Notes: generated by a model not told the origin, from the letters alone. DNA of 39,192 nucleotides from Thermoplasmata archaeon (GCA_007129655.1 SKVC01000023.1:1-39192); one strand, 5' to 3'. Positions 1 through 20,054 are shown, counted from the first letter of the stretch. Program-made: numbers and translations.

Positions 1-110
1 AAGACCAACGGTAGGATCAACGGCAGGGTAAACGGTAAAGTCAATGGTAAGACCAACGGTAGGATCAACGGCAGGGTAAACGGTAAAGTCAACGGCAAGA
101 CCAACGGTAG
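1..110 (+). repeat. In-frame 48-bp tandem repeat (2.3 copies visible, continues off the window) encoding KTNG-RING-RVNG-KVNG
   Basis: Nt 1-48 and 49-96 are identical except at positions 45 and 48 of the unit (aat/aac, ggt/ggc). A third copy starts at nt 97 (aagaccaacggtag..). Each unit consists of four 12-nt sub-repeats of the form xxx-xxx-aac-ggy. Confidence 0.9.
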
Positions 111-3100
111 AAATGATAGAAAAGAAGAATTAGAACAACCTGAATTATTCGCTACTAATACAACGGATTCTACCAGTTTGTCTGCCGATGATGGTTTAAT
201 AAACGGCCTAGGTGGGGTCAGCGGACCTACTAAAGACTTCTCTGGTACCATTCCTCTAAACGAAATCAGTCTACCAGATGACGAAGGCTTGATAAATGGA
301 TTTGCTGTCTCCGAGGATGCTTCCTTAGTACAAGGAGATACTATAAAAGATACTTTCGATATGAGTGAATTGTTTGAAGAAGAAAGACGTCTTAAACCCA
401 GAGGAGGGGGTTCAGATTGGTTTAAGAAAGGTATCGGTGTCGTAGTAATAATGTTCTTTTTACTATTCCTCCCAGTGATGCTGAATATTCTCTATGTACC
501 TGTTGAAGAAAGGATATCAATAGATGGTGATTTTGACGACTGGAGAGCGGTAAGAGCATATTTTGATCCACCGGCACCGCATGATATAGAGAGTATAGAT
601 ATAAGAGAGTACAAACTCGTTGAGAGTGATGGTTTCCTATACATGTATCTACAAACTTTAGGAGATTTATTTATGACCGGAGAGAGGGTAAGCTCTATTC
701 GCTTCTTCATAGATATAGATACTGAAGAGGGATATAGTATTGGAGGATTAAGAGCGGAGTACATGCTTGAAATATATGGCTGGGAGGGGGAATTAAAGGG
801 AACATCATTCCACAATTTTAACCGTTCTCGAGACATGAACGATTGGAATGGTTACCAACAGACCGGAAGTGCCCGAGTTCATTACAGTGATAATGAATTG
901 GAAACCAGAATTTGGATAGGTTCACAAAACGATGATGTTTCACCCCAAATATTCATACACACCATGGCTGGTGATCATTGGGATTATAGTGAAGGACGAG
1001 TTATCCCGGAAAAAGATTCAATAGTAGGTAGAGTAGAAAAGGTAGGTCCAAGAGTTGTCCAACCGGGGGAAACGGTACCTATACTGCAACTTTCCGCTTT
1101 CTCTCTTTCAGGAGAAGCTACTTTGGATAATTTAACCATAGATTATAATGAATATTCAGAAGAGTATATAGACGAAATTATTCTCTATGAAGGAGATATC
1201 AATTCTGTGGATATCGAAAGAGATAACCCACTTTACCGTGTAAGCAATTTCAACGGCTCTGCCATACTTAATCCAAATGATATTGTCAATGAAACTATCA
1301 CCGATTATTTAATCGCTGCAAAAATATCTACGGATGCAACCTATGAAAGTGTCATCGGACTTCACATCTCCGGTATGGAGGCACGTGAAGGTATAGCATC
1401 TATACAGAAAACAAGGGTCGATAATGTATATGTAAGCAATATACCAGCAGAACCACGCGTAAACGGGGCCTTTATCGATTGGAACTACCAACCAGTATGG
1501 GACGATCCTCTAGACGATCTCTCACCTGTTGGCACGTGGAATCCTAATATCGATATAAGACAGTACTCCGCGGTTGGTTCGACAGCTTTTATGATGAGTG
1601 TAGAGGGAAACATGTTGGGTGGTGTCGATGTTCCCTATGCGAGAGGACGACCGCCTGAGCTTGTGGATAGCGATGGAGATGGGATCCCTGATATTTATGA
1701 TCCCTTTCCAAACGATTTTACCAATGATGGTACACCGGATAGCGAGATGCTCACTCCCGAAGGGCTCCCAGACGTTGACGGAGATGGGGTCGCAGACTGG
1801 CCTTATGGCCCTGATAAATGGCTGAATACCACCATACCGGAACATCCGGATATACCGGAAGAATACTGGGGGCGCGAGGTCAGCCGTTACATCGGACCGG
1901 TTATTTTACCTGTACGAACAGGAGAGGACTACGTTCGAATCTTTATAGATGCCGACAGTACCAGCTCCACAGGTTATAGTGCGCCCTGGCTAACAATTGG
2001 TGCCGAATATATGATCGAGATCCGCGGACGCAACATGGATGTAACCCAAGCGGAGTATTATAGGTACACCGGAACACGAACTGATTGGTCGTGGGAATCC
2101 ATGGGAGAGGTTCCGGTCGCACTTAACGCAACCAGCATAGAAACCGCTCTTGATACACAGGCTTTGGGGATACCCGATGACTTCGAGGTGGCATTTGTAG
2201 CTACCGACTGGCAAAACAATCTTGACACCGCTTTAATTAACGAAAACAATATGGACGATTGGCGAACCCGTTCATCTTCCGAAAGATACCGGTTGTATCT
2301 GCGGGACAACAGTGAGATGCTTTATGGAACGGGAGATACTGAAGAAATCGTCACTTTGGATAACAAAGGTCCAATTTCTCATAACTGGAATTCTCCGCCT
2401 TTGGCTGGAGATATTGAAATTTCCGGAACTATGTATGTTCACATGTATCTTGTCCCGGGGTCGTCCGGAAGTAATCATCCGGGATTACAGATAACCATCT
2501 CTCACGAAGGTGGAACTTTGGGTACTGGTGAACTACCCTCGGTTAGTAGTTCCGGTTGGTATACTATCTCCGTGCCTGTCGAAAGTTACACGATCCCTAC
2601 GGAGAACACCATCTCATTGGAAACTACGATAACCGGGGAAGCCGGAAAATTGAGTATGGACATATATCATAACTCGGAGGCAAGAGATTCCAGATTATCC
2701 ATACCTACCACTACCCACATATCCGTTGACGATTTGTATACATTAGACGACGATGGTGAGGAACAGAATTTCTTCCAACCTGGTGAACTGGTCGATGTTA
2801 ACGCAGAAGTAACCCATCCGTTAACTACCGAACTCATATCTGAGGTAAGTATGTCGGTTTATTACCCCGACGATACGCCCTTTGTACAGGATCAAGTGAT
2901 GTCAATGAAAGAGGTAGATATTTCGACACCTCCTTACTGGAATATTTTTAATGGATCCTTCATATTAGAAGAAGAATCACCAAGAGGGATTTACAGAGTA
3001 GAAGTCACAGCAACCGATATGCAAGGGATAAAATCCGTAAACGAAACAACTTTTATCATACCAGTCGATCCGGGAGTAGCGGTTTATCCCGACGTAACCG

Positions 3101-4749
3101 GAACCACGGAACCGGGATCTTGGATAAGTTATAACGTTCAGGTGCAGAATATAGGAAATGTAGATGAAGGATATATTTTGACCGTCTCTGAATCTAGCAG
3201 AGGTTGGGCCACGGAGTTGAGCCATGGTGGAGATGTGATAGCAACGGATGACGACGGTAATGGCAACTGGGATTGGGTTGACCCAACTTGGGATGCTAAC
3301 GATACCGGAGCACCGGTTGTATATATGGTTCCAGAAGATAAGATGACTTTTACAGTTTCCAAATATGCACCGGAACATGCCGAAGGGCAACAGGATACAA
3401 CTTCATTCTTTGCCCATTCTCAGAAATTTGAAGATGTTTTTGATTATTCTATATTAACCACAAATACGCCTTATCTATCCACCTCGAAGGCTCTTTATCT
3501 TCATGATGGTTTTACAATGGATACCATGATGGGTACCTCAACTACTTCTACCACGGTACCTGCAGATGGGAGTCAAACATGGACACAAGAACCACCTCTT
3601 GAACGTGATCTTAGCCTTATAGATTATGCTACCGTTCATCTTTACATTATTCCCGATATTCAGGGTCACCAACGACCGGATGTTTCGGTGTCTTTGAGTG
3701 AATCCGGCTCTTTCATAAACTCTTTTTCCATACATGGAATAGATACAGAGGGTTGGTATGAGTTCCCTATTGGTACTGATGTATTACTCAGCGAAGGAAA
3801 CCAATTGGAAGTTACAGTCTCTTCCGGTACCAGAGGTATAGATCTTAACTACGATTCAGGAACTTACCCTGCTAGAGTAGAATTCAACACTGACTCTTAC
3901 ATACGTCTTGAAGAAATTCGAACTTTCCTTGACGAAACCGAAACGGACGAATTCTCAGCTGGAGATACAGTGACTATTAGAGCTAGGATCTCGGACCCCT
4001 TCGGTGCCTACAATATCGCCGGTGCGATCATGAACATAACCGACCCGGATGGTGTGGAGTTGGTAACGGAACAACCCATGACAGTTATGGAGAACGGTCT
4101 TCTATCCGACACCGTGGGTATATGGTACGAAGGAGATTACACACTGTCGGAAGAAGCGGTAGTCGGTGATTATACGGCAGAGGTAACGGCGACGGATGAA
4201 CAGAGTCTTGAAGACGAAGGTGATTCGTTGTTCCAGGTACCGGCCGGTGTGGAGGTGGAGCCGGACCATGAGGGAGAAGCACAGGCAGGTACGATAGTCG
4301 AATATCAACATACGGTAACTAACCTGGGCAGAGGTAACGACAGGTTCGAGTTGAGTGCATCATCTTCTTTGGGATTCAATGTTACATTACTAGATGAAGA
4401 AGGCAACATCATAACGAACACCGGGGTACTCAAGATGGGTGAATCCATCAACATCACCGTGAGGATAGAGATACCTGAAGACGCGGAAACCGGCATGGAG
4501 GATGTGACAACCATAACCGCCACTTCGATGAGAGATGGTTCAATATCAGACTCCGCAACAGATACTACGAGTATCTCAGAGTTCACCGATATGATGTTAC
4601 CTATTGGATTTGTGTTTTTCATGTTCTTTGGTTGGTTTGTACATCGAAGAATGGTACTGGATAAAAACGTAGAGGTTAAAGAAAAAGAAATACCCGAGGA
4701 TAAATCTAAAGTAGAAAGTAAGATACCTCAAAAAGAGGTGGTAACGTGA
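1..4749 (+). CDS. Giant cell-surface protein anchored in the membrane at both ends; 5'-partial, frame open to the left window edge
   Basis: Frame +1 has no stop from nt 1 to the TGA at 4747-4749. The track's TTG at 178 lies inside this open frame, so the true start is probably left of the window. The N-terminus is basic (K/R)xNG repeats followed by GLINGL/GLINGF motifs. TM1 is GIGVVVIMFFLLFLPVMLNILYV (about nt 430-498), preceded by RRLKPRGGGSDWFKK. The acidic ectodomain is about 1360 aa and contains a duplicated module (IDGDFDDW..IDIREY..RFFIDIDTEEGY..AEYMLEIYG versus FIDWNY..IDIRQY..RIFIDADSTSSTGY..AEYMIEIRG). It also has two DxDGDGxxD calcium-binding-like motifs (nt 1666-1815) and two Ig/CARDB-like segments (..SYNVQVQNIGNVDEGYILTV.. 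and ..EYQHTVTNLGRGNDRFELS..). TM2 is MMLPIGFVFFMFFGWFV (nt 4591-4641), followed by HRR and a 31-aa K/E-rich tail. Confidence 0.75.
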   Translation, partial: KTNGRINGRVNGKVNGKTNGRINGRVNGKVNGKTNGRNDRKEELEQPELFATNTTDSTSLSADDGLINGLGGVSGPTKDFSGTIPLNEISLPDDEGLINGFAVSEDASLVQGDTIKDTFDMSELFEEERRLKPRGGGSDWFKKGIGVVVIMFFLLFLPVMLNILYVPVEERISIDGDFDDWRAVRAYFDPPAPHDIESIDIREYKLVESDGFLYMYLQTLGDLFMTGERVSSIRFFIDIDTEEGYSIGGLRAEYMLEIYGWEGELKGTSFHNFNRSRDMNDWNGYQQTGSARVHYSDNELETRIWIGSQNDDVSPQIFIHTMAGDHWDYSEGRVIPEKDSIVGRVEKVGPRVVQPGETVPILQLSAFSLSGEATLDNLTIDYNEYSEEYIDEIILYEGDINSVDIERDNPLYRVSNFNGSAILNPNDIVNETITDYLIAAKISTDATYESVIGLHISGMEAREGIASIQKTRVDNVYVSNIPAEPRVNGAFIDWNYQPVWDDPLDDLSPVGTWNPNIDIRQYSAVGSTAFMMSVEGNMLGGVDVPYARGRPPELVDSDGDGIPDIYDPFPNDFTNDGTPDSEMLTPEGLPDVDGDGVADWPYGPDKWLNTTIPEHPDIPEEYWGREVSRYIGPVILPVRTGEDYVRIFIDADSTSSTGYSAPWLTIGAEYMIEIRGRNMDVTQAEYYRYTGTRTDWSWESMGEVPVALNATSIETALDTQALGIPDDFEVAFVATDWQNNLDTALINENNMDDWRTRSSSERYRLYLRDNSEMLYGTGDTEEIVTLDNKGPISHNWNSPPLAGDIEISGTMYVHMYLVPGSSGSNHPGLQITISHEGGTLGTGELPSVSSSGWYTISVPVESYTIPTENTISLETTITGEAGKLSMDIYHNSEARDSRLSIPTTTHISVDDLYTLDDDGEEQNFFQPGELVDVNAEVTHPLTTELISEVSMSVYYPDDTPFVQDQVMSMKEVDISTPPYWNIFNGSFILEEESPRGIYRVEVTATDMQGIKSVNETTFIIPVDPGVAVYPDVTGTTEPGSWISYNVQVQNIGNVDEGYILTVSESSRGWATELSHGGDVIATDDDGNGNWDWVDPTWDANDTGAPVVYMVPEDKMTFTVSKYAPEHAEGQQDTTSFFAHSQKFEDVFDYSILTTNTPYLSTSKALYLHDGFTMDTMMGTSTTSTTVPADGSQTWTQEPPLERDLSLIDYATVHLYIIPDIQGHQRPDVSVSLSESGSFINSFSIHGIDTEGWYEFPIGTDVLLSEGNQLEVTVSSGTRGIDLNYDSGTYPARVEFNTDSYIRLEEIRTFLDETETDEFSAGDTVTIRARISDPFGAYNIAGAIMNITDPDGVELVTEQPMTVMENGLLSDTVGIWYEGDYTLSEEAVVGDYTAEVTATDEQSLEDEGDSLFQVPAGVEVEPDHEGEAQAGTIVEYQHTVTNLGRGNDRFELSASSSLGFNVTLLDEEGNIITNTGVLKMGESINITVRIEIPEDAETGMEDVTTITATSMRDGSISDSATDTTSISEFTDMMLPIGFVFFMFFGWFVHRRMVLDKNVEVKEKEIPEDKSKVESKIPQKEVVT

Positions 4750-4819
4750 ATCTGGCAGATTTTACAAAAATTAAATATACTGTTGGAGACACTTCAATAC
4801 AAAAAAGGGGTGCACAGAT
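4750..4819 (+). promoter_or_regulatory. Candidate promoter and SD for the zinc-ribbon gene
   Basis: An A/T box, aaaaattaaatatac, lies at about 4765-4780, roughly 40 nt upstream of the TTG start. A GGGGTG SD lies at 4807-4812, 7 nt before the TTG at 4820. Confidence 0.35.
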
Positions 4820-7800
4820 TTGAGCGAGGAACCCTTGATATGCCCTATATGCGGTAAAGACAACCCAAACGATATAACCCGCTGCAAAATATGTGGCAGC
4901 TCACTGGAAGTTATGGATTCACAAGATAAAAGCATACTTCAGGCACTTCAGCATATCCAAGGAGTGGGCAGCCATAAAGCTAAGAGGATAGTGGACTCCG
5001 GCATCACCTCTCTAGATAAATTGGAAAGTGCGGATCTAGAAAGTTTTCTTAGAGTGGATGGTATAGGAGAATCTACAGCAAAGGATATAATGGAGGCCAT
5101 CGAAGGGTCAAAAAAAGACGAAGGAGGCCTCTATTTATGTGGTGAATGTGGTGCCTTTGTAGGAAAGTCAGCATCTACCTGTTATAATTGTGGAACAAAA
5201 ATGGAGGATGAGGAAGACGAAGATACAGGCGAAGATGCTGAGATAGAGGAATTTATAGATGATGAAATTAAAGAGACGGATGAAGAGGGTTCATTATACT
5301 TGTGTGGAAATTGTGGATCTTTTATCTCAGACAACAATATTACATGCCCCTACTGCAACGCAGCCCTTGAAGACGACGTCGATTTTGATGATACAAACGA
5401 TCTTATTGACGAATCTTTGATAGAAAGGGATGAAACTGCGGAAGTTGAAGAGGAAGAGGAAGAAAGTGGACTCTATTTATGCGAGAACTGCGGTTCTTTT
5501 GTTAGCGCTTCATCAGACGTTTGTACCCTTTGTGGCTTTTCATTTTTGGAGGACGAAGAAAAACACGAGAAACCGCGTGAGGAACTCCCCGATGATTTAG
5601 TGGACGATCTTATCAAGGAATCTGAAGAAGAACTTAAACCAGAATCTATTAAGTATGAAGTTGAAGACGATTTCTCGACAGACGATTTAGAATTAGACGG
5701 GATCGAACTAGAAGAAGAGCAACCGACAGACGATTTAGAATTAGATGGGATCGAACTAGAAGAACAACCGATGGGAGAACTAGAAAACGAACAATTTGAG
5801 ATAGATGAAAATTGGGTGATAGACGAACTAGAGGTAGATGAATCCGACTTAGAAGAACTGGATCGCGAGATAGATAGTGCACTGGATATTGAATATGGAA
5901 TTACTGCAGATTCTACCGGCGATGTGTCCCTTGGGGGAGATATAAAACTATGTGGGAATTGTGGACATTTATGTGATGAAAAGGAAAACATCTGTTCCCT
6001 GTGCGGTCATGAATTTGGAGATATAAAAGAATTAGAATCCGACTCTTTTGAAGAAACCCATGAAGAGGAAATGTCAAAAGTTACTGACACAATGCTTAAG
6101 GCATTGGGTGTCAAAGAGTTGGCAGATGTAGACGTTACCGAAGAGGAACAGGGTGTAAATGTATGTACAGTTTGCGGAGCTTTCCGTAGGGAGAACTCCG
6201 ACAGATGTCCAATCTGTGGTACACTCTCCTCAGAAGCTCCGGATATAGAACTATCAGAAGATATTCGAGAAAGTAGATACACCGAAGATAAGTTGTATAT
6301 TTGCGATGCCTGCGGTGCTATGGTTACCGGAAGGCAAAAATCATGTTCTATATGTGGTAGTAATCTTGAATTAGCTAGAAGAGAAATAGAAGAGGAAACT
6401 TTAGGGATCGAGGAGGATAAAAACGACGATATAATATCTGCCTTTTTTGGAGATTACAAAGGTCTAGATATAGATGAAAAAATAGATGACGAAAGTATCA
6501 GCTTCTGTGATGTTTGTGGCGCATTAGTCGGGCAGGATGCGGATAATTGTTCCATATGCCAGTCTTCATTAGTTGAAGAATCAAAAGATGACATCAAGGG
6601 TGCGGAGTTCTATTTTGGTGTCGACGAGGTTACCGATGATGATATTTTACAAATTGAAGAGGAGATAGAAACTGAATTAGATGAGGACGAAGAAGAAGAT
6701 ATCAGTGAATTACTATCACAACTTGATCAGGACGAGGATTTTCAGGATTTAGATTCTATTACCAAACTACTGGAAGAACATGAAGATATTTTGGAGAATG
6801 AACCTGAGATAGAATCACAATTAGAAGGAGCGGAATATATTGATGAATTAGTGGACAAAGAACTCAATATTGATGAAGTTGAAAAAGAAGAAGAAGTGAC
6901 TGAAGAAGAACCAATTGATGAATTTGAAATAGAAGATGTGACTGAAGAACAACAAATCGATGAAAGGGAAATTATAGATGAATTAGTAGAGAATGAACTG
7001 CAGTTGGAAGATGATTTTACAGAAGCTGATATCGAAGATGATGAAGATTTAAAAGATATCCTTAAAAATATATCTGATTATAAATATGAACAGACTAAAA
7101 CAGAAGAACTTGAAGAATTCGATGTTAGTGCAGTTCTAGATGATATCAGTCATGATGTAAAGGAAAGATCAGAGGAAATAAGGTCTTCTAAGGAAACCGA
7201 ACATAAAGCAGATGAGGAATGGATGCGCTGTCCGTCCTGCGAATCTTATGTAGATGTAGATAGTGATTTTTGTGGAGTTTGTGATCATTCGTTCTCTGAT
7301 ACGTTGGAAGAAGAAACAGCGATCCCTTCGACTAGTGAACCGGTAAAAACATCGCAACCATATGCAGAAGAGATTGATGCGGATTGGATCGATGATGTCA
7401 TCAATGAACCGGTTAAGGCTAAGGTAACTAAGAAACCAGAAAGATATCAACCACCGAGCATGATCAAAGGAAACCTTGATCGGATAAAGGAATACGAAGT
7501 ACCTATTTCTGGCATATCTTTACTGGCTTTCGGTGGTTTATCTATGTATTCCTATGGTGAATATGGCCTTCAGTTTTTAATGGGTGTCGGGCTAGTCATG
7601 GTAGGAATTTTCATGGGTTTGGGAATATTAACACTTATACTCTTAAGACATGAATATTTGAAAGATTCATATCAAGGATTATTAGGTTATTCTATCGCTT
7701 TGATAATGGCGGCATTCGTACCTGTAAATATTTGTTTATTAAGTTTACCTTTACCACTTATTGCAAATGTAGGAGTCTTAGGTATGTCACTTGGGATCTT

Positions 7801-8521
7801 CTGGATATTAGACTTTAAAATACATCCAAAATATCGTTATTATATGCTCTGGTTTTTTGGAATCATACTTATCTTTATCGTGTTGAGTAGTTCATTGATA
7901 TCAAATATGTCTACATACAGTGAATTAGGTTATCCAATTATCATGTCTATGGGTTTGGGGGGTGTTTTGGTATTCGGAGGCACATTGAAGTGGTATAAGC
8001 AGATAAATGTGGACACCCAAGCTTACGAAAGCATCAGAACAGGTCACAGGCATCTTATCATGGGAGATTACGAAGATGCCCTCGTTAATTTAGAAAGGGC
8101 AAACATGATTTCACATAAGAACGAAACAGAGACTCAAAATAAAGACAATTCAGCACTCTACAGTAAAGGTCTAGCACTCTGTAGTATGGGAGAATTCCAA
8201 AAAGCCGTAGAAATATTTAAAGATGTATTAAGGGCAGATCCGGATAATGTATGTGCATGGAACAATTTAGGGACTGCACACAGTAGAATGGGAAATCAAA
8301 AGAAAGCTATAATGTGTTTTAAACACGCATTGAACGGAGATCCGACATACGAAATATCTTGGAACAATCTCGGCAACGCCCTTTATAGGTCGGGAGAATA
8401 TTCGAGAGCTCTTGATTGCTATGATAAAGCTCTAGAATTGAACTCAAGTTACAGGGATGCTAACATCAATAAATCTCAGGCATTAATCAAGTTAGGGCAT
8501 AGCGGTTCTCGTATAGCTTAA
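4820..8521 (+). CDS. Multi-zinc-ribbon / HhH / hyper-acidic / polytopic membrane / TPR protein (1233 aa), function unknown
   Basis: The TTG start has an SD. There are nine CxxC-x9-11-CxxC modules at aa 8-25, 107-124, 162-179, 221-238, 378-395, 449-466, 495-512, 563-580 and 804-821. Four of them are preceded by a (G/S/K)LY(L/I)C motif. Two HhH motifs occur at aa ~40-95 (IQGVGSHKAKRIV, VDGIGESTAKDIM). Long D/E-rich linkers separate the modules. About six hydrophobic helices span aa ~897-1055 (nt ~7508-7984). C-terminal TPR-like repeats span aa ~1075-1225 (AWNNLGTAHSRMGNQKKAIMCFKHALNGDP, SWNNLGNALYRSGEYSRALDCYDKALELN). Confidence 0.85.
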   Translation: MSEEPLICPICGKDNPNDITRCKICGSSLEVMDSQDKSILQALQHIQGVGSHKAKRIVDSGITSLDKLESADLESFLRVDGIGESTAKDIMEAIEGSKKDEGGLYLCGECGAFVGKSASTCYNCGTKMEDEEDEDTGEDAEIEEFIDDEIKETDEEGSLYLCGNCGSFISDNNITCPYCNAALEDDVDFDDTNDLIDESLIERDETAEVEEEEEESGLYLCENCGSFVSASSDVCTLCGFSFLEDEEKHEKPREELPDDLVDDLIKESEEELKPESIKYEVEDDFSTDDLELDGIELEEEQPTDDLELDGIELEEQPMGELENEQFEIDENWVIDELEVDESDLEELDREIDSALDIEYGITADSTGDVSLGGDIKLCGNCGHLCDEKENICSLCGHEFGDIKELESDSFEETHEEEMSKVTDTMLKALGVKELADVDVTEEEQGVNVCTVCGAFRRENSDRCPICGTLSSEAPDIELSEDIRESRYTEDKLYICDACGAMVTGRQKSCSICGSNLELARREIEEETLGIEEDKNDDIISAFFGDYKGLDIDEKIDDESISFCDVCGALVGQDADNCSICQSSLVEESKDDIKGAEFYFGVDEVTDDDILQIEEEIETELDEDEEEDISELLSQLDQDEDFQDLDSITKLLEEHEDILENEPEIESQLEGAEYIDELVDKELNIDEVEKEEEVTEEEPIDEFEIEDVTEEQQIDEREIIDELVENELQLEDDFTEADIEDDEDLKDILKNISDYKYEQTKTEELEEFDVSAVLDDISHDVKERSEEIRSSKETEHKADEEWMRCPSCESYVDVDSDFCGVCDHSFSDTLEEETAIPSTSEPVKTSQPYAEEIDADWIDDVINEPVKAKVTKKPERYQPPSMIKGNLDRIKEYEVPISGISLLAFGGLSMYSYGEYGLQFLMGVGLVMVGIFMGLGILTLILLRHEYLKDSYQGLLGYSIALIMAAFVPVNICLLSLPLPLIANVGVLGMSLGIFWILDFKIHPKYRYYMLWFFGIILIFIVLSSSLISNMSTYSELGYPIIMSMGLGGVLVFGGTLKWYKQINVDTQAYESIRTGHRHLIMGDYEDALVNLERANMISHKNETETQNKDNSALYSKGLALCSMGEFQKAVEIFKDVLRADPDNVCAWNNLGTAHSRMGNQKKAIMCFKHALNGDPTYEISWNNLGNALYRSGEYSRALDCYDKALELNSSYRDANINKSQALIKLGHSGSRIA
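5678..5770 (+). repeat. In-frame tandem duplication (48 + 45 nt) encoding TDDLELDGIELEE(E)QP twice
   Basis: The first copy is acagacgatttagaattagacgggatcgaactagaagaagagcaaccg. It is followed by acagacgatttagaattagatgggatcgaactagaagaacaaccg. A weaker 42-nt duplication (gtgactgaagaa..gatgaa) lies at about 6896-6979. Confidence 0.85.
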
Positions 8522-8526: not shown

Positions 8527-9867
8527 TTAGCTATTTATCAGCTTATCCGCGGCCTCTTTTATAGCTTCGGAGTATGTGGGATGTGGATGGATTGTATCTA
8601 CGACATCACTCACAGTCAGCCCCTTTTCCATGGCTAAGGTCCCTTCCATGATTATGTCCGTTGCTCCAGGACATACTAGATGCATCCCGATAACTTCATC
8701 ACCTTTGCAAACTAGTTTAGCCAATCCGGCTCTCTCACCTGTTGAATAACCGCGCCCTAAAGCCGATATCGGAAAAGAAGCAGTTCGTACATCATCGTAT
8801 TCTTTTTTTGCATCTTCCTCGGAAAATCCCACACTGGCTATCTCAGGATGAGTGAACACACCAGCAGGTATGAGATAGTTGGAGAATCCTCTATTACTTT
8901 TTTTATCTATTGTATCGATAACAATTTTTGCTTGTTTGTATGCTGTGTGTGCCAGCATACCCTTACCCGTAACGTCACCAACTGCATATACTCCTTCAAC
9001 TGGGGTCTTCATGAAATCATCGGTGATCACGCTTCCTTTTTCCGATATAATATCCAAATCGATATCCGGTGGCGAAGGTTTTCTACCGACGGAACACAGT
9101 ATCTTTTCGAACTCAAGCTCTTCTTTCTGACTACCTTCCAAGACCGCTTTGAAAGGCTTCTTACCTTCTACTGAAGATACCTTAGCTCCTGTTATGATCT
9201 TAACACCCTTTCTTTTTAGCATACTCTCTGCTTCTTTACCGAGCGAACTGTCCATGACGGGTAGTAAGCTGTCAAGCAATTCCACTACGGTAACGGAAGT
9301 ACCCATGGATGAATAGAAAAAAGCCATCTCAACACCGATATAACCACCACCGATTATCAACATTGATTCAGGGATACTTTCAAGTTCTATTGCACCTTTG
9401 TTGGTCAATATATTTTTCTCGTCGACCTTTAAAAACGGTAATACAACTGGTTCGGAACCTGTAGCTATTATGATGTGTTCCGCTTCTAGTGTTTCTCCGT
9501 TTACTTCTACTTCCTTGTTGTTATTGAGCTTTGCTTCACCCCGAATAATCTCTACACCACTTTCCTTTAATTCCTTCTCCACACCCTTTCTTGATATCTT
9601 CACCGCTCGTTTCTTATTTTTCATAACTCTAGAAAAGTCGATACTTTCCTGCGCTGCATTGATCCCTTTACGTCCCGCTCCCTTTATCGAATCGGCTAGT
9701 TCTGCAACGGACAACAGTGCCTTAGATGGTATGCAACCTGTATTGGTACACACTCCACCGATTGTATTCTTTTCAACGAGGATCACATCAAATCCTCTTT
9801 TGGCACCTAATGCTGCACTCTTGTATCCACCCGGACCACTACCGATTACTATGATTCGTTCAGTCAT
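8527..9867 (-). CDS. lpd: Dihydrolipoyl (dihydrolipoamide) dehydrogenase-family flavoprotein disulfide reductase
   Basis: N-terminal FAD-binding GxGxxG (IVIGSGPGG). Redox-active disulfide motif GGVCTNTGCIPSKALL. Second Rossmann fold IIGGGYIGVEMA. C-terminal interface motif HPHPTYSEA. Length 446 aa. No E1/E2 or glycine-cleavage genes occur in the window. Confidence 0.8.
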   Translation of the reverse strand: MTERIIVIGSGPGGYKSAALGAKRGFDVILVEKNTIGGVCTNTGCIPSKALLSVAELADSIKGAGRKGINAAQESIDFSRVMKNKKRAVKISRKGVEKELKESGVEIIRGEAKLNNNKEVEVNGETLEAEHIIIATGSEPVVLPFLKVDEKNILTNKGAIELESIPESMLIIGGGYIGVEMAFFYSSMGTSVTVVELLDSLLPVMDSSLGKEAESMLKRKGVKIITGAKVSSVEGKKPFKAVLEGSQKEELEFEKILCSVGRKPSPPDIDLDIISEKGSVITDDFMKTPVEGVYAVGDVTGKGMLAHTAYKQAKIVIDTIDKKSNRGFSNYLIPAGVFTHPEIASVGFSEEDAKKEYDDVRTASFPISALGRGYSTGERAGLAKLVCKGDEVIGMHLVCPGATDIIMEGTLAMEKGLTVSDVVDTIHPHPTYSEAIKEAADKLINS

Positions 9868-9987: not shown

Positions 9988-10968
9988 ATGAACACTATGG
10001 CAGATAAACTAAAATTCGCTTTTTACTGGGCCGCAAGCTGCGGTGGCTGCGAGATAGCAGTATTGGATATCAACGAAAAGATACTAGATGTAGTTGAATT
10101 AGCAGATATATTGTTTTGGCCAGTGGCTATAGATGTGAAATATAAAGACGTCGAGGCCATGGAAGACGAGCACATCGATGTATGCTTCTTCAACGGTGCA
10201 GTCCGTACTTCAGAACAGGAACACATCGCTAAATTACTAAGAAAAAAATCCAAGTTCTTGGTTTCCTTTGGTGCATGTGCGGTTAACGGTGGAATCCCGG
10301 GCCTAGCCAATGTTACAGATCGTGAAGAGATTTTTTTAGAAAGTTACACAGACAACTTATCTACAGATAATCCCGGTGGTAAAGTTCCTTGTACTACTTT
10401 TGAGGTTCCGGAAGGAGAGCTTACACTGCCCGATATATACGATACCGTTAACACTCTACATCAGGTGGTAGATGTCGACTATTTCTTACCCGGGTGCCCG
10501 CCTCCTCCAGAATTGATAATAAATGCAGTAGAAGTTATCGCCTCGGGAGATTTACCTCCAAAAGGTGCCGTACTGGCTCCCTTGAAGTCCGTTTGTGATG
10601 AATGCAAATACGAAAAAAGCGAGAAGAGGATCGGCGCCGTAAAAAGAATTTATGAAATTGAAAAGCTAGAGGACAAATGCCTCCTTGAACAGGGAATAAT
10701 CTGCATGGGTCCGGCCACAAGGGGCGGATGCGATGCAAGATGCCTCGATGCAAATATGCCCTGTACAGGATGCGGAGGACCTACACCGAATTCCCTGGAC
10801 CAAGGTGCAAAGATGATATCAGCCCTGGGCTCTATCCTGGGGATCGAAGGAGAAGTAGATATGGATGACGAAGAAGTACAGGCAATTCTAGACCAGGTAA
10901 GGGACATGATAGGCACCTTTTACAAATATACACTACCGGATTCACTTCTAAAAAGGAAGGTGATGTAA
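9988..10968 (+). CDS. mvhG: [NiFe] hydrogenase small subunit, group 3 (MvhG-like)
   Basis: N-terminal WAASCGGCEI (proximal cluster CxxC). SFGACAVNGGIPGL. LPGCPP. C-terminal CMGPATRGGCDARC..MPCTGCGGPT..DQGAKMISAL..GTFYKYTLP. This closely resembles the methanogen MvhG pattern as I recall it. No Tat signal. The AGGAAG SD at 9982-9987 is better spaced for the ATG at 9997 (MADKL..), which is a likely alternative start. Confidence 0.85.
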   Translation: MNTMADKLKFAFYWAASCGGCEIAVLDINEKILDVVELADILFWPVAIDVKYKDVEAMEDEHIDVCFFNGAVRTSEQEHIAKLLRKKSKFLVSFGACAVNGGIPGLANVTDREEIFLESYTDNLSTDNPGGKVPCTTFEVPEGELTLPDIYDTVNTLHQVVDVDYFLPGCPPPPELIINAVEVIASGDLPPKGAVLAPLKSVCDECKYEKSEKRIGAVKRIYEIEKLEDKCLLEQGIICMGPATRGGCDARCLDANMPCTGCGGPTPNSLDQGAKMISALGSILGIEGEVDMDDEEVQAILDQVRDMIGTFYKYTLPDSLLKRKVM

Positions 10969-10969
10969 A

Positions 10970-12427
10970 ATGGAAAAAATTGAGATAGACCCGATCACAA
11001 GATTGGAAGGCCACGGTAAAATAACCATATTCCTAGATGATGATAAGAATGTAAAGAACGCATATCTACAGATACCTGAACTCCGTGGATTCGAAAAATT
11101 TTGTCAGGGCAGAAGGGCGGAAGACATGCCACAGATAACATCTCGTATATGCGGTGTTTGTCCCGTTGCACATCATTTTGCAGCCACAAAGGCCCTAGAT
11201 GATGCCTTCGATGTTGAACCTCCATCGGCGGCAAAGAAGCTGAGAGAGTTGATGTACAGCGGCTATATCATTTACGACCATACACTTCATTTCTACTTCT
11301 TGGGTGGACCTGATTTCGTTGTCGGTCCGGATGCACCACCGGGGGAAAGAAACATCCTAGGTGTGATCAAAAAAGCAGGTATCGACGTGGCTAAAGATGT
11401 GATCAAACACCGGGCATTCGGTCAGAAAATAACTGCTATACTCGGGGGAAAGGCCACCCATCCTGTCTGCGGATTACCCGGAGGGGTATCGAAATCACTC
11501 TCTGAAGATGAAGTTAAAGAAATAGAAGAGATGATCGATTCCTGCCACGTCTTTGCAAAATTCACTTTGAAGCTATTTGACGATATCGTGTTAAAGAATC
11601 AAGATTATGTAGACCTGATACTCAGTGATCCATACCAATTGGATACCTACAATATGGGACTCGTTGACGATAACAACAAGGTCAACTTTTACGACGGACT
11701 TATCAGAGTTACAGATCCCAAGGGTAAAGAATTCCTCAAATTCCCAGTAAAGGACTACAACGAACACGTGGCTGAAAATGTTGAAGAATGGACTTACATG
11801 AAATATCCTTACCTGAGGAAGATCGGTTGGAACGGTTTGACCAGCGGCCAGGAAAGCGGTATCTATCGTGTGGGCCCTCTTGGACGACTTAACGCAGCGG
11901 ACGGGATGGCTACACCGGATGCTCAAAAAGAATACGAACGTATGTACGAAACCCTAGGCGGAAAGCCGGTTAACTCCACACTCGCCTTCCACTGGGCTAG
12001 ATTGATCGAGTTACTCTACGCAACAGAGCGAGCAAAAGAGTTGATTCAGGATCCGGAGATAACTTCCGAACACGTTAGAAATCCAGTCGGAGAACCAGGG
12101 GAGGGAATAGGCGTAGTCGAAGCCGCAAGGGGAACTCTCATACACCATTACAATGTGGATAAGGATGGTCTTATGGAAAAAGCAAATTTGATTGTCGCTA
12201 CCACCAACAACGCAGGTGCCATAACCATGTCGGTAAGGGATGCTGCAATGGGTCTCGTGCATGAAGGTGAGATCGACGAAGGTATGCTAAATAAGGTGGA
12301 GATGGCATTCAGAGCTTACGACCCATGTTTCGCATGCGCTACCCACAGCTTGCCGGGAGAGATGCCGTTGGAAGTAGAGATATTAGACAGTAAAGGTAAA
12401 CTCTTCAAGAGTCTAGAGCGCTTATGA
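10970..12427 (+). CDS. mvhA: [NiFe] hydrogenase large subunit, group 3c-like (MvhA-like)
   Basis: N-terminal ITRLEGHGKITI..ELRGFEKFCQGR..RICGVCPVAHH (L1 Ni-binding CxxC). C-terminal DPCFACATHS (L2 CxxC-x2-H). Length 485 aa. It starts 1 nt after the mvhG stop. Confidence 0.9.
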   Translation: MEKIEIDPITRLEGHGKITIFLDDDKNVKNAYLQIPELRGFEKFCQGRRAEDMPQITSRICGVCPVAHHFAATKALDDAFDVEPPSAAKKLRELMYSGYIIYDHTLHFYFLGGPDFVVGPDAPPGERNILGVIKKAGIDVAKDVIKHRAFGQKITAILGGKATHPVCGLPGGVSKSLSEDEVKEIEEMIDSCHVFAKFTLKLFDDIVLKNQDYVDLILSDPYQLDTYNMGLVDDNNKVNFYDGLIRVTDPKGKEFLKFPVKDYNEHVAENVEEWTYMKYPYLRKIGWNGLTSGQESGIYRVGPLGRLNAADGMATPDAQKEYERMYETLGGKPVNSTLAFHWARLIELLYATERAKELIQDPEITSEHVRNPVGEPGEGIGVVEAARGTLIHHYNVDKDGLMEKANLIVATTNNAGAITMSVRDAAMGLVHEGEIDEGMLNKVEMAFRAYDPCFACATHSLPGEMPLEVEILDSKGKLFKSLERL

Positions 12428-12879
12428 AAACTATTTTGATCGGATTAGGCAATCCATTGCTTACAGATGATGCCGTTGGTATCAGAGTCGCTAAATCACT
12501 GGATTCAGAGAGTTGGACGGATGTAGATATCGAAGAGGCTTCGGTAGGTGGTATGGAATTAGTGGAGATGATGCTGGGGTATGAGCGTGTAATTATCGTA
12601 GATTCTATCATCACCGGAAAAAAAGAAGTCGGCACTATTCGCAGGATAACTCCAGAAGATTTTAAGGAAACCCGTAATGTGAGCAACCTGCATAACGTAG
12701 GGTTTTTACAGGCGTTAAAGATTTGGTCTGAAACAGGAGATGACATCATACCCCAGGATATAGTGATCTACGCTGTAGAGGTGGACGATGTTTACACCTT
12801 CTCTGAAACGATGACTCCGAGAGTGGAGGAAGCACTCCCTAAAGTTATCGAACAGGTTCGTGACGAACTAAACAGTTAG
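12424..12879 (+). CDS. Hydrogenase maturation endopeptidase (HycI/FrhD/HybD family)
   Basis: ILIGLGNPLLTDDAVGIRVA (the GNxxxxDD motif). IIVDSI. HNVGFLQAL. Length 151 aa. There is a 4-nt ATGA overlap with mvhA. Confidence 0.8.
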   Translation: MKTILIGLGNPLLTDDAVGIRVAKSLDSESWTDVDIEEASVGGMELVEMMLGYERVIIVDSIITGKKEVGTIRRITPEDFKETRNVSNLHNVGFLQALKIWSETGDDIIPQDIVIYAVEVDDVYTFSETMTPRVEEALPKVIEQVRDELNS

Positions 12880-14813: not shown

Positions 14814-15233
14814 TTAACACTCTTCCTTTAAAGGGTTTGGACCGATTGTTTTTAGAGTACTTACAAATTCCGTGACTACATCTGCAAATTTTTGACCTTC
14901 GGAAGCTGAAATATACTCGAAACGCAACCGGTCGGGATCGATGTTGAAATCCGCAAGTAGTCTCTTTATAAGCATCATCTTTCGGTTTGTTTTGTAATTT
15001 CCTGACTGATAATGACAATCTCCGGGGTGACATCCTGCCACCAGGACGCCATCGATACCTTCCTTAAGGGCATCCAGTACGAATACTGGATCTACCCTTC
15101 CGGAGCACATCACTCTTATCGATCTTATATTATCAGGATATTTTAATCTCGAAGTTCCTGCAAGGTCCGCTCCTGCATAGGAACACCAGTTACACAAAAA
15201 TGCAACTACTGAAGGTTCAAATTCTTTACTCAT
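14814..15233 (-). CDS. mvhD: MvhD / FlpD-type [2Fe-2S] electron-transfer subunit, copy 1
   Basis: [50 protein letters not shown]. There is an 8-nt overlap with the upstream tandem hdrA. Confidence 0.9.
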   Translation of the reverse strand: MSKEFEPSVVAFLCNWCSYAGADLAGTSRLKYPDNIRSIRVMCSGRVDPVFVLDALKEGIDGVLVAGCHPGDCHYQSGNYKTNRKMMLIKRLLADFNIDPDRLRFEYISASEGQKFADVVTEFVSTLKTIGPNPLKEEC

Positions 15234-18200
15234 TTATAACACCTCTCGAACAAGTTCCAAGAGCTTTTATCATTGCCAATATTTGATTATCTTTGAATCC
15301 TTTTTGATCGATGGCTCCCGAGGGACATGCAGCTACACAAGTACCGCAGCCCTGACAAAGTCCTTCGGTTATCTCGGCGTGTGTCACTTCAACTCCGTCG
15401 ATTGTTTCCGTCAGTGATTCTATCGCATTATAGGGGCAGACAGATATGCAAGTCTTACAACCCGAACATCGATCATCATCCACAACTGCTACATTCGCTT
15501 CCGCTTCCATCTTCGGATGGGCTAATACCGTGGATGCCCGGGCAGCTGCTGCTTGAGCCTGATAGATGCATTCGTTGATGAATTTAGGAGAATGACAACT
15601 TCCTGCCAGGAACACTCCTGCAGTTGAGAAATCAACCGGTCGAAGCTTTACATGTGCTTCCAGGAAAAATCCATCTTGATTTAGAGGAACTTTCAACTGC
15701 TGTGCTACTTCAAAGGTGCCCTCCTCCGGATTCATACCGGTAGACAGAACTAAGTGATCTGCGTTTAGCTCGATCTCTTCCTGAAGCATAGGCTCCCAGA
15801 CCTTAGCTGTGATATTTTCATCGATTTTGATCTCAGGTTTCTTTTCCACATCATACTGCATGAAAATTACTCCATTCTCACGTGCCTCTTTGTAGTATCT
15901 TTCAAAGAAACCGTAGGTCATCATGTCCCGGTAGAGGATATAAACTTCCGCACGCGGATTGATATCCTTTATCTTCAAGGCATTCTTCAATGCCCCCATA
16001 CAGCATATGCGGGAACAGTAATTCCTATCTCCCTCTCTGGACTCCACGCATTGAATCATCACAAAGGTTTCCCCCTCTTCGATATCTCCTTCATTTAACT
16101 CTGAAAGCATCTCTTCCAGTTCCAATTGGGTAACGATCCTGGGATCTTTACCGTAACCGTAGGATGTGGGGGTGTGCTCTGAGCTTCCGGTGGTGACTAT
16201 TATGGCACCGGTGATTATTTCTTCATCATCCGAGAGCTTTATATTGTAATTACCCACATGACCGGATATTTCTTTAATTGTCGAGTCAAGTCTTAACTCA
16301 AGGTCCTCATGTTCTGATATGCGCTTTTCCATCTCGGCAAGTATCTTATCAAGATCCACATCTTCGAAGGCGAATTTTATCTTGTTCAGTTTTCCGCCTA
16401 ACTTATCTTCCTTTTCTACCAGTACCGTCTTGTAACCTTGATCCGCAAGAGATAGTGCCGTTGTCATCCCTGCGACGCCACCGCCTACTACTAGTGCTGA
16501 TTGCTCGATATCGATGGTTGTTTTCGGTATCTGTTCTAGCAATCTGGATTTGGCTACGGTCATAGATATCAATTCTTTGGCTTTTTCAGTCGCTCTATCT
16601 TTATCCGTATGCACCCAGGAGCAGTGTTCTCTTATATTAGCCATCTCCAAGAGATGTGGGTTCAATCCTGCTTCTGAAAGACTCTTCTTGAAGAGTGGTT
16701 CATGTGTTCTCGGAGTACACGCAGCAACTATGATTCTGTTCAACCTTTCATCCTTGATGATATCAACTATGCTCTTTTGGGTGTCTTCGGAGCATGTGTA
16801 AAGACTATCGGTTGCGTATTCTACATTATCTAAGGTATCTGCATATTCTACTACCTTACTCACATCTACATAATTACCAATATTGATGCCGCAATTACAT
16901 ACGAATACACCGATCCTCGGCTCTTCTTCGGAAACATCTCTTTCAGGGTACTCCGGGGCCGGTTCCACTAAGGTATCCTTTGAATCTCTCAATAAAGCGG
17001 CAGCTTGTGATGCTGCAGCCGAAGCCTGCATAACCGATTCTGGTATGGCTTGAGGTTCGACTATGCTTCCTGCCATGAATATCCCGGGTTTGACCAATGC
17101 CACAGGATCATTTGTACCTGATAAAGGGAAACCGAATTCGTTGACATCCAGCCCCAGATCGCTGAGCATCTTAGATCTGTCACCCGTCATGCAGAGACCG
17201 ATGGACAGTACCACCATATCAAAGGTATCTTCGTGAAGTTCGCCCTCCACATCTTCGTATCTTATGGTCAAATCTCCGCATTCTTTTTGGTATATCTCAG
17301 ATATCCTCGAACGTTCGTACTTGATTCCGTGTTCTCTTTTTGCCCTCTCTACATACCGGTCGAAATCCTTACCGAAGGTTCTCACATCTATGTAGAATAC
17401 AGTAGCATCTATGTCTTTCTCGTGCTCCTTGGCGATTACTGCTTCTTTGGTTGTGTACATACAGCACATGGAAGAGCAGAATTCTTGGTTTATGTTTCTG
17501 TCCCTCGAACCCACACACTGGACCCAGGCTATTTTTTTGGGATGTTTCTTGTCTCCCGGGCGTAATATTTTGCCTTCGTATGGTCCGGAAGCAGATAGGA
17601 TTCTCTCGAATTCCAGAGATGTGATCACATTCGGAAATTTACCGTATCCGAATTCTTTTTTGATCTTCGGGTCAAATGGCGCAGAACCTGTTGCCAGTAT
17701 GACCGCACCAACATCGAGAGCTATTTCTCTGTCCTCTTGTGAATGGTCTATGGATCCTGCTGTGCATGCCTTTTCACAAAGTCCACATTCGATGCAGCCT
17801 TTGTGATCCGACGTTCCTTCCTTATCTATCACATATGCATTTGGGATCGCCTGCGGATAATACTTGTAGATCGCTTTCCTCATAATGAGTCCTTGTTCGA
17901 AAGTATCGGGGATCTCTATGGGGCACACTTCAGCACAATCTCCGCAAGCCGTGCAAACATCCGGATCTATGTATCTTGCCTTCTGGTCAACTAATACCTT
18001 GAAGTTTCCTGCCTCGCCTTTTATATCTTTAACTTGAGCAAGTGTAAATATATCTATATTCGGATGCCGTGCGCAATCAACCAATTTAGGAGAAAGTATG
18101 CACATGGAACAATCGTTGGTGGGAAAGGTCTTGTCAAGCATCGCCATGACTCCACCTATAGCAGGTGATTTTTCAATTAAGTATACCTTGAATCCCATAT

Positions 18201-18309
18201 CCGCAAGGTCAAGTGCAGACTGTACACCTGCTATTCCTCCGCCAACTACGGCAACGGCACCGATGGTTTCATTCGCAGACATCGTGACCCTCCTTGAAAT
18301 ATCCTTCAT
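15226..18309 (-). CDS. hdrA: Tandem HdrA-type flavoprotein: an uninterrupted thioredoxin-reductase-like HdrA module with inserted ferredoxin (aa ~17-445) fused to a second, complete HdrA unit (aa ~463-1027)
   Basis: Module 1: [74 protein letters not shown]. Module 2: [14 protein letters not shown] (N-terminal Cys-cluster domain), [23 protein letters not shown], and a C-terminal 2x[4Fe-4S] ([24 protein letters not shown]). An AGGAGG SD sits 6 nt before the second ATG (M10, nt 18282), which is the more likely start. That start would reduce the overlap with the upstream gene to 14 nt. Confidence 0.85.
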   Translation of the reverse strand: [1027 protein letters not shown]

Positions 18310-18946
18310 CTATTGCTATCTCTCGTATGGCAAACATCAATTTTGGTATCTCCACACCCTGGGGACACTGTTCAAAACATCGAAAGTGGGTAGAACATAT
18401 TTCAACGAATTTATTAGCGTAAACCTTATCTTTCATACCAAGAAGGGAAGTTTTGATCACTTTACGTGGAGAATACAATGAATCTAAGTCTCTTTCCGGA
18501 CAACCGGCGGTACAGGTTCCACATGAAAAACAATTGTAGATCTCTTTCCCGGATTCTCCTTCTGCTAATTCGTATTTGAAAGAGGGATCCATACCTTTCT
18601 TTATCTCGTCACCGCACTCGTCCTCTTCTTTCTCATCCTTCAAACGTTCGTTTCGTATCTGATTCATCAAACCCTTTACATTCACTTCCTGAGGACACTT
18701 ATCCAAACATCTGTAATGGGATGAACATACCCATAGAAACTCGGATGATAGAACTTCTTCACGGAGACCCAGGAGTGCCTTTCTAATTATAGTTCTCGCG
18801 TTCCAGTGGTCATCTACGTCCATCTCGGGACACCTTGTTGTGCAGCTTCCACATGCAAAACAGTTCAGTATACCTTCTCCACCTTCCTGTTCCGCTATTT
18901 CGTATTTGAAGTTAACATCTAGTTTCTTGGTATCGATGGAATCCAT
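18269..18946 (-). CDS. Internally duplicated HdrC-like iron-sulfur protein (two HdrC-type repeats)
   Basis: Repeat 1: NCFACGSCTTRCPE..VCSSHYRCLDKCPQ. Repeat 2: NCFSCGTCTAGCPE..ICSTHFRCFEQCPQ. Each repeat carries CxxCxxCxxxCP plus Cx5Cx3CP. The gene starts immediately after the upstream stop (0-nt gap). Confidence 0.7.
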   Translation of the reverse strand: MDSIDTKKLDVNFKYEIAEQEGGEGILNCFACGSCTTRCPEMDVDDHWNARTIIRKALLGLREEVLSSEFLWVCSSHYRCLDKCPQEVNVKGLMNQIRNERLKDEKEEDECGDEIKKGMDPSFKYELAEGESGKEIYNCFSCGTCTAGCPERDLDSLYSPRKVIKTSLLGMKDKVYANKFVEICSTHFRCFEQCPQGVEIPKLMFAIREIAIDEGYFKEGHDVCE

Positions 18947-20044: not shown

Positions 20045-20054
20045 GGTAATACCT

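Follow-up and report, generated by a model that had tools for sequence, protein, structure and literature searches.

What does a protein do in which nine zinc ribbons, a helix-hairpin-helix (HhH) pair, acidic spacers, transmembrane (TM) helices and tetratricopeptide repeats (TPRs) are joined in one chain, and is it functionally linked to the giant protein encoded immediately upstream? The gene raising this question comes from a Thermoplasmata archaeon and is situated in a stretch of 39,192 nt (GCA_007129655.1 SKVC01000023.1:1-39192), the whole of which is referred to below as the window. The following alternatives were considered: the protein could be an adaptor of the module formed by its upstream neighbours, a membrane scaffold that is independent of them, a device tethering DNA to the membrane, or a redox or metal sensor. 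We tentatively favour the first one, with a confidence just short of even, and describe the product as a putative scaffold of the inner membrane face, specific to the order Candidatus Halarchaeoplasmatales and serving as the cytoplasmic adaptor of a module that comprises a KaiC-type ATPase and a giant receptor. The types of its domains suggest that it may bind both nucleic acids and proteins.

The N-terminal part contains nine C-x2-C-x10-C-x2-C units, at aa 8, 107, 162, 221, 378, 449, 495, 563 and 804. The preliminary description had listed nine CxxC ribbons over approximately 820 aa, and in all nine the spacing is exactly ten residues. Almost all cysteines of the first 821 aa (36 of 37) fall within these units, while 20,000 shuffles of the protein yielded on average 0.01 unit and at most two. 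The scores exceed the cut-offs of three Pfam families, DZR (PF12773; 78.7 bits, cut-off 27.3), Zn_ribbon_3 (PF13248; 54.8 bits, cut-off 27) and Zn_Ribbon_1 (PF13240; 39.2 bits, cut-off 25). The lead-in (G/S/K)LY(L/I)C, earlier ascribed to four ribbons, is indeed found before four of them, namely ribbons 2, 3, 4 and 7. When the ribbon profile was compared with PDB, only LysW, rubredoxin, RING and ribosomal ribbons were matched, and the similarity did not go beyond the knuckles.

The spacers between the ribbons are dominated by aspartate and glutamate, as had been suggested: D and E make up 32% of aa 1-880, compared to approximately 15% in the other proteins of the window, and thus the acidity of the arm is far above that of the generally acidic proteome of this organism. 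Their composition suggests that the spacers are disordered. Two of them contain tandem repeats, a duplication of TDDLELDGIELEE(E)QP (two copies, aa 286-317, window positions 5675-5770) and a 42-nt repeat in the spacer between ribbons 8 and 9 (window positions 6869-6980), and such duplications show how the spacer length drifts.

The HhH pair that had been placed after ribbon 1 corresponds to a Pfam HHH_5 domain (PF14520; E = 1.9e-11, 44.7 bits, cut-off 27) with conservation of 0.72-0.81; domains of this type generally bind DNA without sequence specificity. Its PDB matches, the HhH domains of LigA, eL32, Topo V, Hef and Rad51, are weak. We observed no relatives of the head composed of the ribbon and the HhH domain outside the family, as the profile of the N-terminal 250 aa retrieved only weak matches to generic multi-ribbon proteins (E at least 3.7e-6, 23% identity).

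A search of 5.8 billion proteins yielded 18 full-length homologues with 32-63% identity. According to the source names and taxonomy, all of them belong to Thermoplasmata, order Candidatus Halarchaeoplasmatales (Saliniplasma and its relatives), and originate from metagenome-assembled genomes (MAGs) from sediments of soda or hypersaline lakes (for the lineage and its habitat, see PMC11332174). The ribbons number exactly nine in 18 out of 18 homologues, their order is the same everywhere, their cysteines are invariant, and the spacing is exactly ten in 161 of the 162 ribbons of the family. Thus the ribbons, rather than being low-complexity noise in the homologues, are the most conserved parts of the protein. 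The identity within one ribbon position across species (0.40-0.66) exceeds that between positions (0.22-0.47), ribbons 2-4 forming a subgroup, and hence the nine-fold array was fixed before the radiation of the family and has been retained since then.

The spacers behave in the opposite way: across the family, the length varies from 71 to 171 aa between ribbons 4 and 5 and from 127 to 280 aa between ribbons 8 and 9, and the sequence varies too, while the acidity stays, the net charge up to ribbon 9 ranging from -143 to -287. Besides the ribbons and the HhH domain, conservation is concentrated in the TM helices, in the TPRs and in a seven-residue island (aa 426-432). Judging by these alignments, the arm is built as beads on a string, and the architecture is under strong purifying selection.

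Several observations on the family may be added. In three MAGs the gene is split by a frameshift in a spacer (L029, 15725-17725; L030, 12318-16329, with four and five ribbons in the two parts; L017, 305-2200), and these frameshifts are probably assembly errors in low-complexity DNA, pseudogenisation being the alternative. Pfam PF28085.1 appears in the precomputed annotation of many homologues (P0001, P0005-P0011 and others), though not of every one. The contig L007, from the same organism as the window, encodes on the minus strand (20-787) a 255-aa protein with a hyperacidic N-terminus, two TM helices and two Cys4 ribbons with acidic spacers; situated approximately 2 kb upstream of the gene block described below, it is a miniature of the nine-ribbon style. 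The only distant cousin that was found, P0019, is a soluble protein with seven ribbons separated by acidic spacers and with TPRs, having neither the TM domain nor the G-h-G hairpins, so that its HhH domain is degenerate. Its gene (L026, 7690-10158) sits among three archaellin genes, genes for a PAS sensor and a REC-wHTH regulator, and several ORFs that match nothing in Pfam, and this context is weakly consistent with a role in the regulation of surface structures. Literature searches on this architecture or lineage returned no description of the family.

The arm is followed by the membrane domain, predicted earlier as about six hydrophobic helices. In the AlphaFold2 model of the C-terminal part, built with the family alignment, there are six TM helices (mean predicted local distance difference test score, pLDDT, 82), and the model of the TM region only is of similar quality (pLDDT 84.7; predicted template-modelling score, pTM, 0.83). 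The sixth helix continues unbroken into a cytoplasmic helix leading to a four-hairpin TPR domain. The core was oriented by the positive-inside rule. The family mean of lysines plus arginines is 1.6-3.9 in the segments before TM1, between TM2 and TM3, between TM4 and TM5 and after TM6, versus 0-0.3 in the 1-2, 3-4 and 5-6 loops, and the external loops comprise only 4-11 residues. Hence both termini are likely cytoplasmic, as the charge distribution and the AlphaFold model support, and the ribbons and the TPRs would lie on the same, inner side of the membrane, as proposed in the preliminary description.

The possibility that the TM core belongs to a known enzyme or transporter family, which would explain the protein in another way, was rejected. 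The core had no hits in Pfam; among the NCBIfam models, the full-length protein matched nothing but TPRs, HhH and ribbons; Foldseek against PDB gave no significant fold match (best E = 0.41, TM-scores up to 0.38); and the eight clusters matched by the profile of the core among 1.84 billion representative proteins all belonged to the family itself. Foldseek with the whole C-terminal model retrieved TPR proteins only, which is uninformative for the membrane part. There is no conserved charged residue in the core, the conserved positions being occupied by G, P, W, Y, F, S and T; it is therefore better suited for packing or anchoring than for catalysis or transport, and its being an enzyme or a transporter seems unlikely.

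The TPR domain belongs to TPR_1 (PF00515; 90.3 bits, E = 3.6e-26, three stretches). At least three TPR-like repeats had been expected, and the domain comprises three canonical repeats, preceded by a degenerate one and closed by a capping helix. The model superposes on the consensus TPR and on the TPRs of OGT with a root-mean-square deviation of 1.4-2.3 Å over approximately 155 columns (Foldseek probability 1.00).

The gene is present as first described, together with every element of that description. The ORF itself opens with a TTG codon that aligns with TTG or ATG starts, preceded by the same Shine-Dalgarno sequence, in five other species. It is separated by 70 nt, the distance reported initially, from the giant gene of the same strand (stop at 4749, start at 4820). 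In the species where this gap is approximately 70 nt, an AAAnTA(A/T)ATATA element is located about 40-45 nt 5' of the start codon. Given the established architecture of archaeal promoters, this element may be read as a BRE/TATA box, implying an internal promoter.

The window contains only the 3' part of the giant gene. Most contigs, this one included, break in its repeat region, and this accounts for the truncation. The full gene, read in the 100%-identical contig L007, encodes 1892 aa, arranged as follows: a degenerate KaiC domain, NG(K/R)x repeats, the WFKKG motif with a TM helix, an ectodomain of approximately 1400 aa, a C-terminal TM helix and a variable tail. At the N-terminus (aa 23-203) the Pfam family KaiC (PF06745) is matched with 36.6 bits (cut-off 26.6), and the Walker A motif, G(Q/P)(S/P)GK(I/T), lacks the invariant S/T, which identifies the domain as an inactivated KaiC (iKaiC). 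The cationic repeat is observed in every species examined, with roughly 15-30 units and DNA periods of 12, 24 and 48 nt (L007, 5085-5276). The first TM helix is far more conserved than the adjacent ectodomain (mean pairwise identity 72% vs 38% in eight species), which hints at an intramembrane partner. The ectodomain has weak MG2/Ig-like matches, and its comparison with PDB sequences revealed no relative. Thus the name of a giant surface protein, given in the preliminary description, holds for the ectodomain but tells only part of the story, as the 5' part beyond the window edge encodes a cytoplasmic KaiC-like domain.

The end of the giant protein (window positions ~4570-4749) has the (S/P)E(F/Y)-x3-LP pattern, the TM helix, RR(K) and then a non-conserved tail of roughly 25-50 aa. 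A PEF/PGF-CTERM substrate of an archaeosortase was considered here and rejected, because a tail of this length follows the signal-like pattern and no NCBIfam sorting domain is matched.

Two genes precede the giant one with 4-nt overlaps in contig L007, encoding a 201-aa winged helix-turn-helix (wHTH) protein and a 229-aa KaiC-like ATPase. The ATPase is a stand-alone KaiC protein, with a single PF06745 domain (179.2 bits) and an intact Walker A motif, GPAGSAKT, and its PDB matches are KaiC, PH0186 and PH0284 (E from 1e-44 to 1e-28), as well as SSO2452. The block thus consists of the genes for the wHTH protein, the KaiC-like ATPase, the iKaiC/giant protein and, in the fourth position, the nine-ribbon protein. 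The linkage to the upstream gene, which the preliminary description had made a test of its reading, is retained: in all examined loci with homologues the giant gene is immediately 5' of the nine-ribbon gene, the gap ranging from -4 to +73 nt (tblastn). The wHTH-KaiC-iKaiC order is seen in every locus whose contig extends far enough. Vice versa, a reverse scan of contigs starting from the iKaiC domain found this lineage only, with the nine-ribbon gene downstream in 5 out of 5 complete contigs. The genes flanking the block vary between species. PADLOC and PHROGs scans yielded nothing relevant, as the wHTH protein matched just the wHTH domain of Csa3/CasR and the TPRs just generic TPR models, and the hypothesis of a defence system was rejected on these grounds.

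Given the iKaiC domain of the neighbour and the genes in front of it, which encode a wHTH protein and a KaiC-like ATPase, the interpretation shifts from a scaffold of a surface protein to a component of a KaiC module. Archaeal KaiC-family ATPases have been proposed to be signalling hubs acting via a second component, and inactivated KaiC domains are known as fusion partners (PMC4858521, PMC5847659); zinc-ribbon membrane proteins recur in archaeal surface-structure loci (same sources). The nine-ribbon protein could be the adaptor, or the "second component", of such a signalling or assembly module. Its membrane domain would pack on the highly conserved TM helix of the giant protein. The TPR platform is held directly beneath the membrane by the helix that continues TM6, and the TPR groove together with the nine ribbons would offer multivalent docking for the KaiC and iKaiC domains or for the basic repeat linker. 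The opposite charges of the polyanionic arm and the cationic repeats would favour such docking, although this is suggestive only. The head with the zinc ribbon and the HhH domain, near the tip of the arm, would contact nucleic acid or the ATPase ring in the cytoplasm, and events at the giant ectodomain would be coupled to intracellular output, possibly via the wHTH protein.

Four considerations weigh against this interpretation. Firstly, gene order is weak evidence of function, because the clade is narrow, being a single order, and the adjacency of the convergent gene lpdA, which is probably unrelated functionally, is conserved too: it is syntenic in every locus extending far enough downstream (all but L022). 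Secondly, having its own conserved TATA-like element where the gap is approximately 70 nt, the nine-ribbon gene may be transcribed independently. Thirdly, docking of the extreme C-terminus of the giant protein on the TPRs is unlikely, as the giant tail is not conserved. Fourthly, DZR-type ribbons are without an established ligand, and the knuckles resemble also those of rubredoxin and LysW. The membrane-anchored scaffold of the preliminary description is therefore supported in part: the anatomy, the topology and the linkage stand, whereas the synteny is weak as functional evidence, and the context is now that of a KaiC-type module.

If the protein were an independent housekeeping scaffold, the synteny with the KaiC and giant genes would be merely an inherited gene order without functional coupling. 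The protein could then form a polyanionic brush beneath the membrane, store cations or serve as a docking platform of a general kind. The TATA-like element and the Shine-Dalgarno sequence of its own agree with this, as does lpdA, a metabolic gene, being conserved in the same manner, and the acidic, TM-containing ribbon protein encoded outside the block (L007, 20-787) would mean that the style is a habit of the lineage. On the other hand, in several species the giant and nine-ribbon genes overlap or are only 1-14 nt apart, which suggests co-transcription, the limits of the block are kept while both flanks are rearranged, and throughout the genome collection the genes co-occur in both directions without exception. 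We consider this explanation unlikely, albeit not far-fetched.

A rather improbable alternative is that the (HhH)2 head and ribbon 1 bind duplex DNA and tie the nucleoid, or incoming or outgoing DNA, to the membrane complex, with the ATPase of the KaiC/RecA superfamily as the motor and the giant ectodomain providing cell contact, the whole serving to anchor the chromosome or to exchange DNA. Conservation is seen both in the HhH hairpins and in the basic residues following them, the closest solved relatives are (HhH)2 domains that bind DNA, those of LigA, Topo V, Hef, Rad51 and XPF, and the 229-aa KaiC protein weakly matches Sms and DnaB-like models. Moreover, ATPases of the RecA superfamily carry an N-terminal HhH domain (archaeal RadA) or C4 fingers with the x10 spacing (bacterial RadA/Sms). 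However, there is a single small HhH unit in an arm with a net charge between -143 and -287, which should repel DNA; the block has no nuclease, recombinase, pilus or translocase channel; the TM core lacks pore-like conserved polar residues; and the cousin P0019 has lost the G-h-G hairpins.

Bolder still, and quite improbable in our estimate, is the notion that the four proteins of the block (wHTH, KaiC ATPase, giant and nine-ribbon) constitute a new archaeal trans-envelope machine, in which the ATPase ring would dock on the two-pass giant protein, while the nine-ribbon protein would be a polyanionic "fishing line" of roughly the 100-nm class, its zinc-ribbon/HhH head catching DNA or a basic partner and bringing it to the complex in the membrane. 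Were it true, the machine would be a new kind of apparatus for contact-dependent signalling or for the exchange of DNA, without relation to type IV pili, Ced or conjugation systems.

It is very doubtful that the protein is a redox or metal sensor whose nine Cys4 sites release metal upon oxidation, similarly to Hsp33 or the ZAS anti-sigma factors, so that a change in the arm conformation would free or capture the wHTH regulator and the neighbouring disulfide oxidoreductase would reset the system. The 36 invariant cysteines in nine Cys4 sites, the knuckles of a rubredoxin/rubrerythrin type and the convergent neighbour, which is always a pyridine-nucleotide-disulfide oxidoreductase (followed by thioredoxin in one species), are what could be expected of such a sensor. 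But Cys4 ribbons are usually structural, the ZAS motif H-x3-C-x2-C is absent in a regular-expression search, and the neighbour is probably metabolic, scoring above the dihydrolipoyl dehydrogenase cut-off and having lipoate ligase genes nearby in some species. Finally, that the ORF is not a real gene, being a low-complexity ORF or a gene-calling artefact, as the biased composition and short tandem repeats of the spacers and the frameshifts inside them in some MAG copies might suggest, is effectively refuted by the conservation pattern, with full-length orthologues in approximately 13 or more species, invariant cysteines, retained HhH, TM and TPR parts, a conserved Shine-Dalgarno sequence and start codon, and confident AlphaFold2 models.

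Table 1. Positions of the nine-ribbon gene, its parts and the adjacent genes in the window
Feature	Coordinates	Strand	Remarks
Gene of the nine-ribbon / HhH / 6-TM / TPR protein	4820..8521	+	intact ORF, 1233 aa
Shine-Dalgarno sequence GGGGTG	4807..4812	+	G(G/A)GGTGC conserved across species
AAAnTA(A/T)ATATA element in the spacer between the giant and nine-ribbon genes	4765..4779	+	invariant in 6 species
Ribbon 1 (aa 8-25)	4841..4894	+	cysteines invariant
(HhH)2 domain (aa 41-94)	4940..5101	+	Pfam HHH_5; both G-h-G hairpins (GVG, GIG) conserved
Ribbons 2, 3, 4 (aa 107-124, 162-179, 221-238), GLYLC subgroup	5138..5533	+	short acidic spacers between; between-position identity 0.46-0.47
Ribbons 5, 6, 7, 8 (aa 378-395, 449-466, 495-512, 563-580)	5951..6559	+	
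Ribbon 9 (aa 804-821)	7229..7282	+	
Orphan six-helix membrane domain (aa 896-1056), predicted N-in / C-in	7505..7987	+	AlphaFold2 and K+R pattern of the loops
TPR domain (aa ~1084-1228), cytoplasmic, with an unbroken helix leading from TM6	8069..8503	+	Pfam TPR_1, model, Foldseek
Giant neighbour gene, 3' 4.7 kb, cut by the window edge	1..4749	+	frame open from nt 1
End of the basic tetrapeptide repeat (x-N-G-K/R)n, cytoplasmic linker between iKaiC and TM1 of the giant protein	1..111	+	
WFKKG motif and first TM helix of the giant protein	418..513	+	conservation over 8 species
C-terminal TM helix of the giant protein	4591..4641	+	(S/P)E(F/Y) motif before, RR(K) and variable tail after
Convergent dihydrolipoyl dehydrogenase gene (lpdA)	8527..9867	-	TIGR01350, 460.7 bits vs cut-off 408.8

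Two observations concern the surroundings of the block. In related genomes a class I aminoacyl-tRNA synthetase (tRNA-synt_1 and Anticodon_1; IleRS-like) is encoded just outside it (L005, 11054-15166; L011, 1-2609, minus strand). At its C-terminus, two HHH_5 units and DUF835 are fused to it, the total length being 1370-1380 aa. This lineage may have combined HhH domains with KaiC-related ones on more than one occasion. Further downstream in the window (14814-29892, minus strand) there is a dense cluster of the heterodisulfide-reductase type, comprising genes for two MvhD/FlpD-like, three HdrA-like (654, 1027 and 1079 aa, two of them with extra domains), NuoE/NuoF-like and HdrB/HdrC-like proteins. 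Next to it are the operon of a NiFe hydrogenase (9988-12879) and a gene for acetyl-CoA synthetase, and this arrangement suggests an electron-bifurcating complex in a non-methanogen.

If the adaptor interpretation holds, the block would provide a testable example of archaeal KaiC-like "hub" ATPases being wired to the cell surface. The wiring would consist of a receptor that combines a giant ectodomain with an inactivated KaiC domain, and of a dedicated adaptor in the membrane whose metal knuckles are constant in number. Two elements are defined here, the orphan six-helix membrane domain and the conserved cationic tetrapeptide repeat on the partner protein, and the design principle is unusual, rigid Cys4 beads in a fixed order being placed on a polyanionic string of freely drifting length. 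As the family is confined to uncultured haloalkaliphilic Thermoplasmatota, its wider impact will be limited, unless a general mechanism emerges.

Compared to known systems, the parts (DZR/zinc ribbon, HHH_5, TPR) are familiar, while for the TM domain, for the architecture as a whole and for the module there is no described counterpart in Pfam, NCBIfam, PADLOC, PHROGs, PDB and the searchable literature. Several known classes were tried and set aside. The spacing is that of the RanBP2-type zinc finger (PF00641), but its pattern W-x-C-x2-4-C-x3-N-x6-C-x2-C is absent (regular-expression search), and zf-RanBP is not matched among the 19 Pfam families. Rubredoxin is matched at the level of knuckles only (E at least 0.002), and the spacing is 10, whereas the CxxCG and CPxCG knuckles of rubredoxin are approximately 28-30 residues apart, surround an aromatic core and bind iron as Fe(Cys)4. 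For ZAS anti-sigma factors, the defining H-x3-C-x2-C, which adjoins a helix bundle binding the sigma factor, is lacking. The TMTC/PMT-like GT-C enzymes with TPRs have at least 8-11 TM helices, large external loops, a conserved acidic motif and non-cytoplasmic TPRs, whereas here there are six helices, outer loops of 4-11 aa, no conserved charge, TPRs predicted to be cytoplasmic, and no Pfam or Foldseek match to this class. The DNA receptors of the ComEA type have a single N-terminal TM helix and an extracytoplasmic (HhH)2 domain, whereas in the nine-ribbon protein the HhH domain precedes the six-helix domain by approximately 800 aa and is assigned to the cytoplasmic side.

The TPRs are similar to those of CTPR and OGT in retaining the WxNLG asparagines, but, unlike the OGT superhelix, there are only about four repeats, tethered by a membrane helix, and no catalytic domain. 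The fingers of RanBP2 and Nup153 form arrays of 4-8 Cys4 modules of approximately 25 aa, C-x2-C-x10-C-x2-C, which provide multivalent docking within disordered linkers. The nine-ribbon arm shares with them the spacing and the multivalent array, which is an analogy of design rather than homology; in contrast to the nucleoporins, the protein is archaeal and membrane-anchored, and its linkers are acidic. The HhH domain of archaeal RadA/Rad51 and the C4 finger of bacterial RadA/Sms sit on rings of the RecA/KaiC type and contact DNA. Ribbon 1 and the (HhH)2 domain are the same pair of domain types, and a KaiC-like ATPase is encoded two genes upstream; unlike those accessory domains, they reside on a separate membrane protein, and the sequence matches are insignificant (E = 0.13-0.97).

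The closest parallels lie in two archaeal groups. With the KaiC-like modules, as summarised in PMC5847659 and PMC4858521, the block shares a single-domain ATPase, a neighbour with a degenerate KaiC domain, a wHTH protein and a predicted non-enzymatic "second component"; unlike in the known modules, the iKaiC domain is fused via basic tetrapeptide repeats to an ectodomain of approximately 1400 aa, and no KaiB-like partner is encoded in the block. In the literature on archaeal KaiC modules we found no description of a second component shaped as a membrane protein with nine ribbons, HhH and TPRs. With the DZR membrane proteins of archaeal type IV pilus loci (arCOG07264, arCOG06883; PMC4858521), the nine-ribbon protein has in common the Cys4 ribbons of the CxxCG...CxxCG form, a likely cytoplasmic location with a membrane anchor, and the association with a surface locus. 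The known proteins of this kind have one or two ribbons, whereas here nine are distributed along a polyanionic linker of approximately 800 aa and combined with an HhH domain, an orphan six-helix membrane domain and TPRs.

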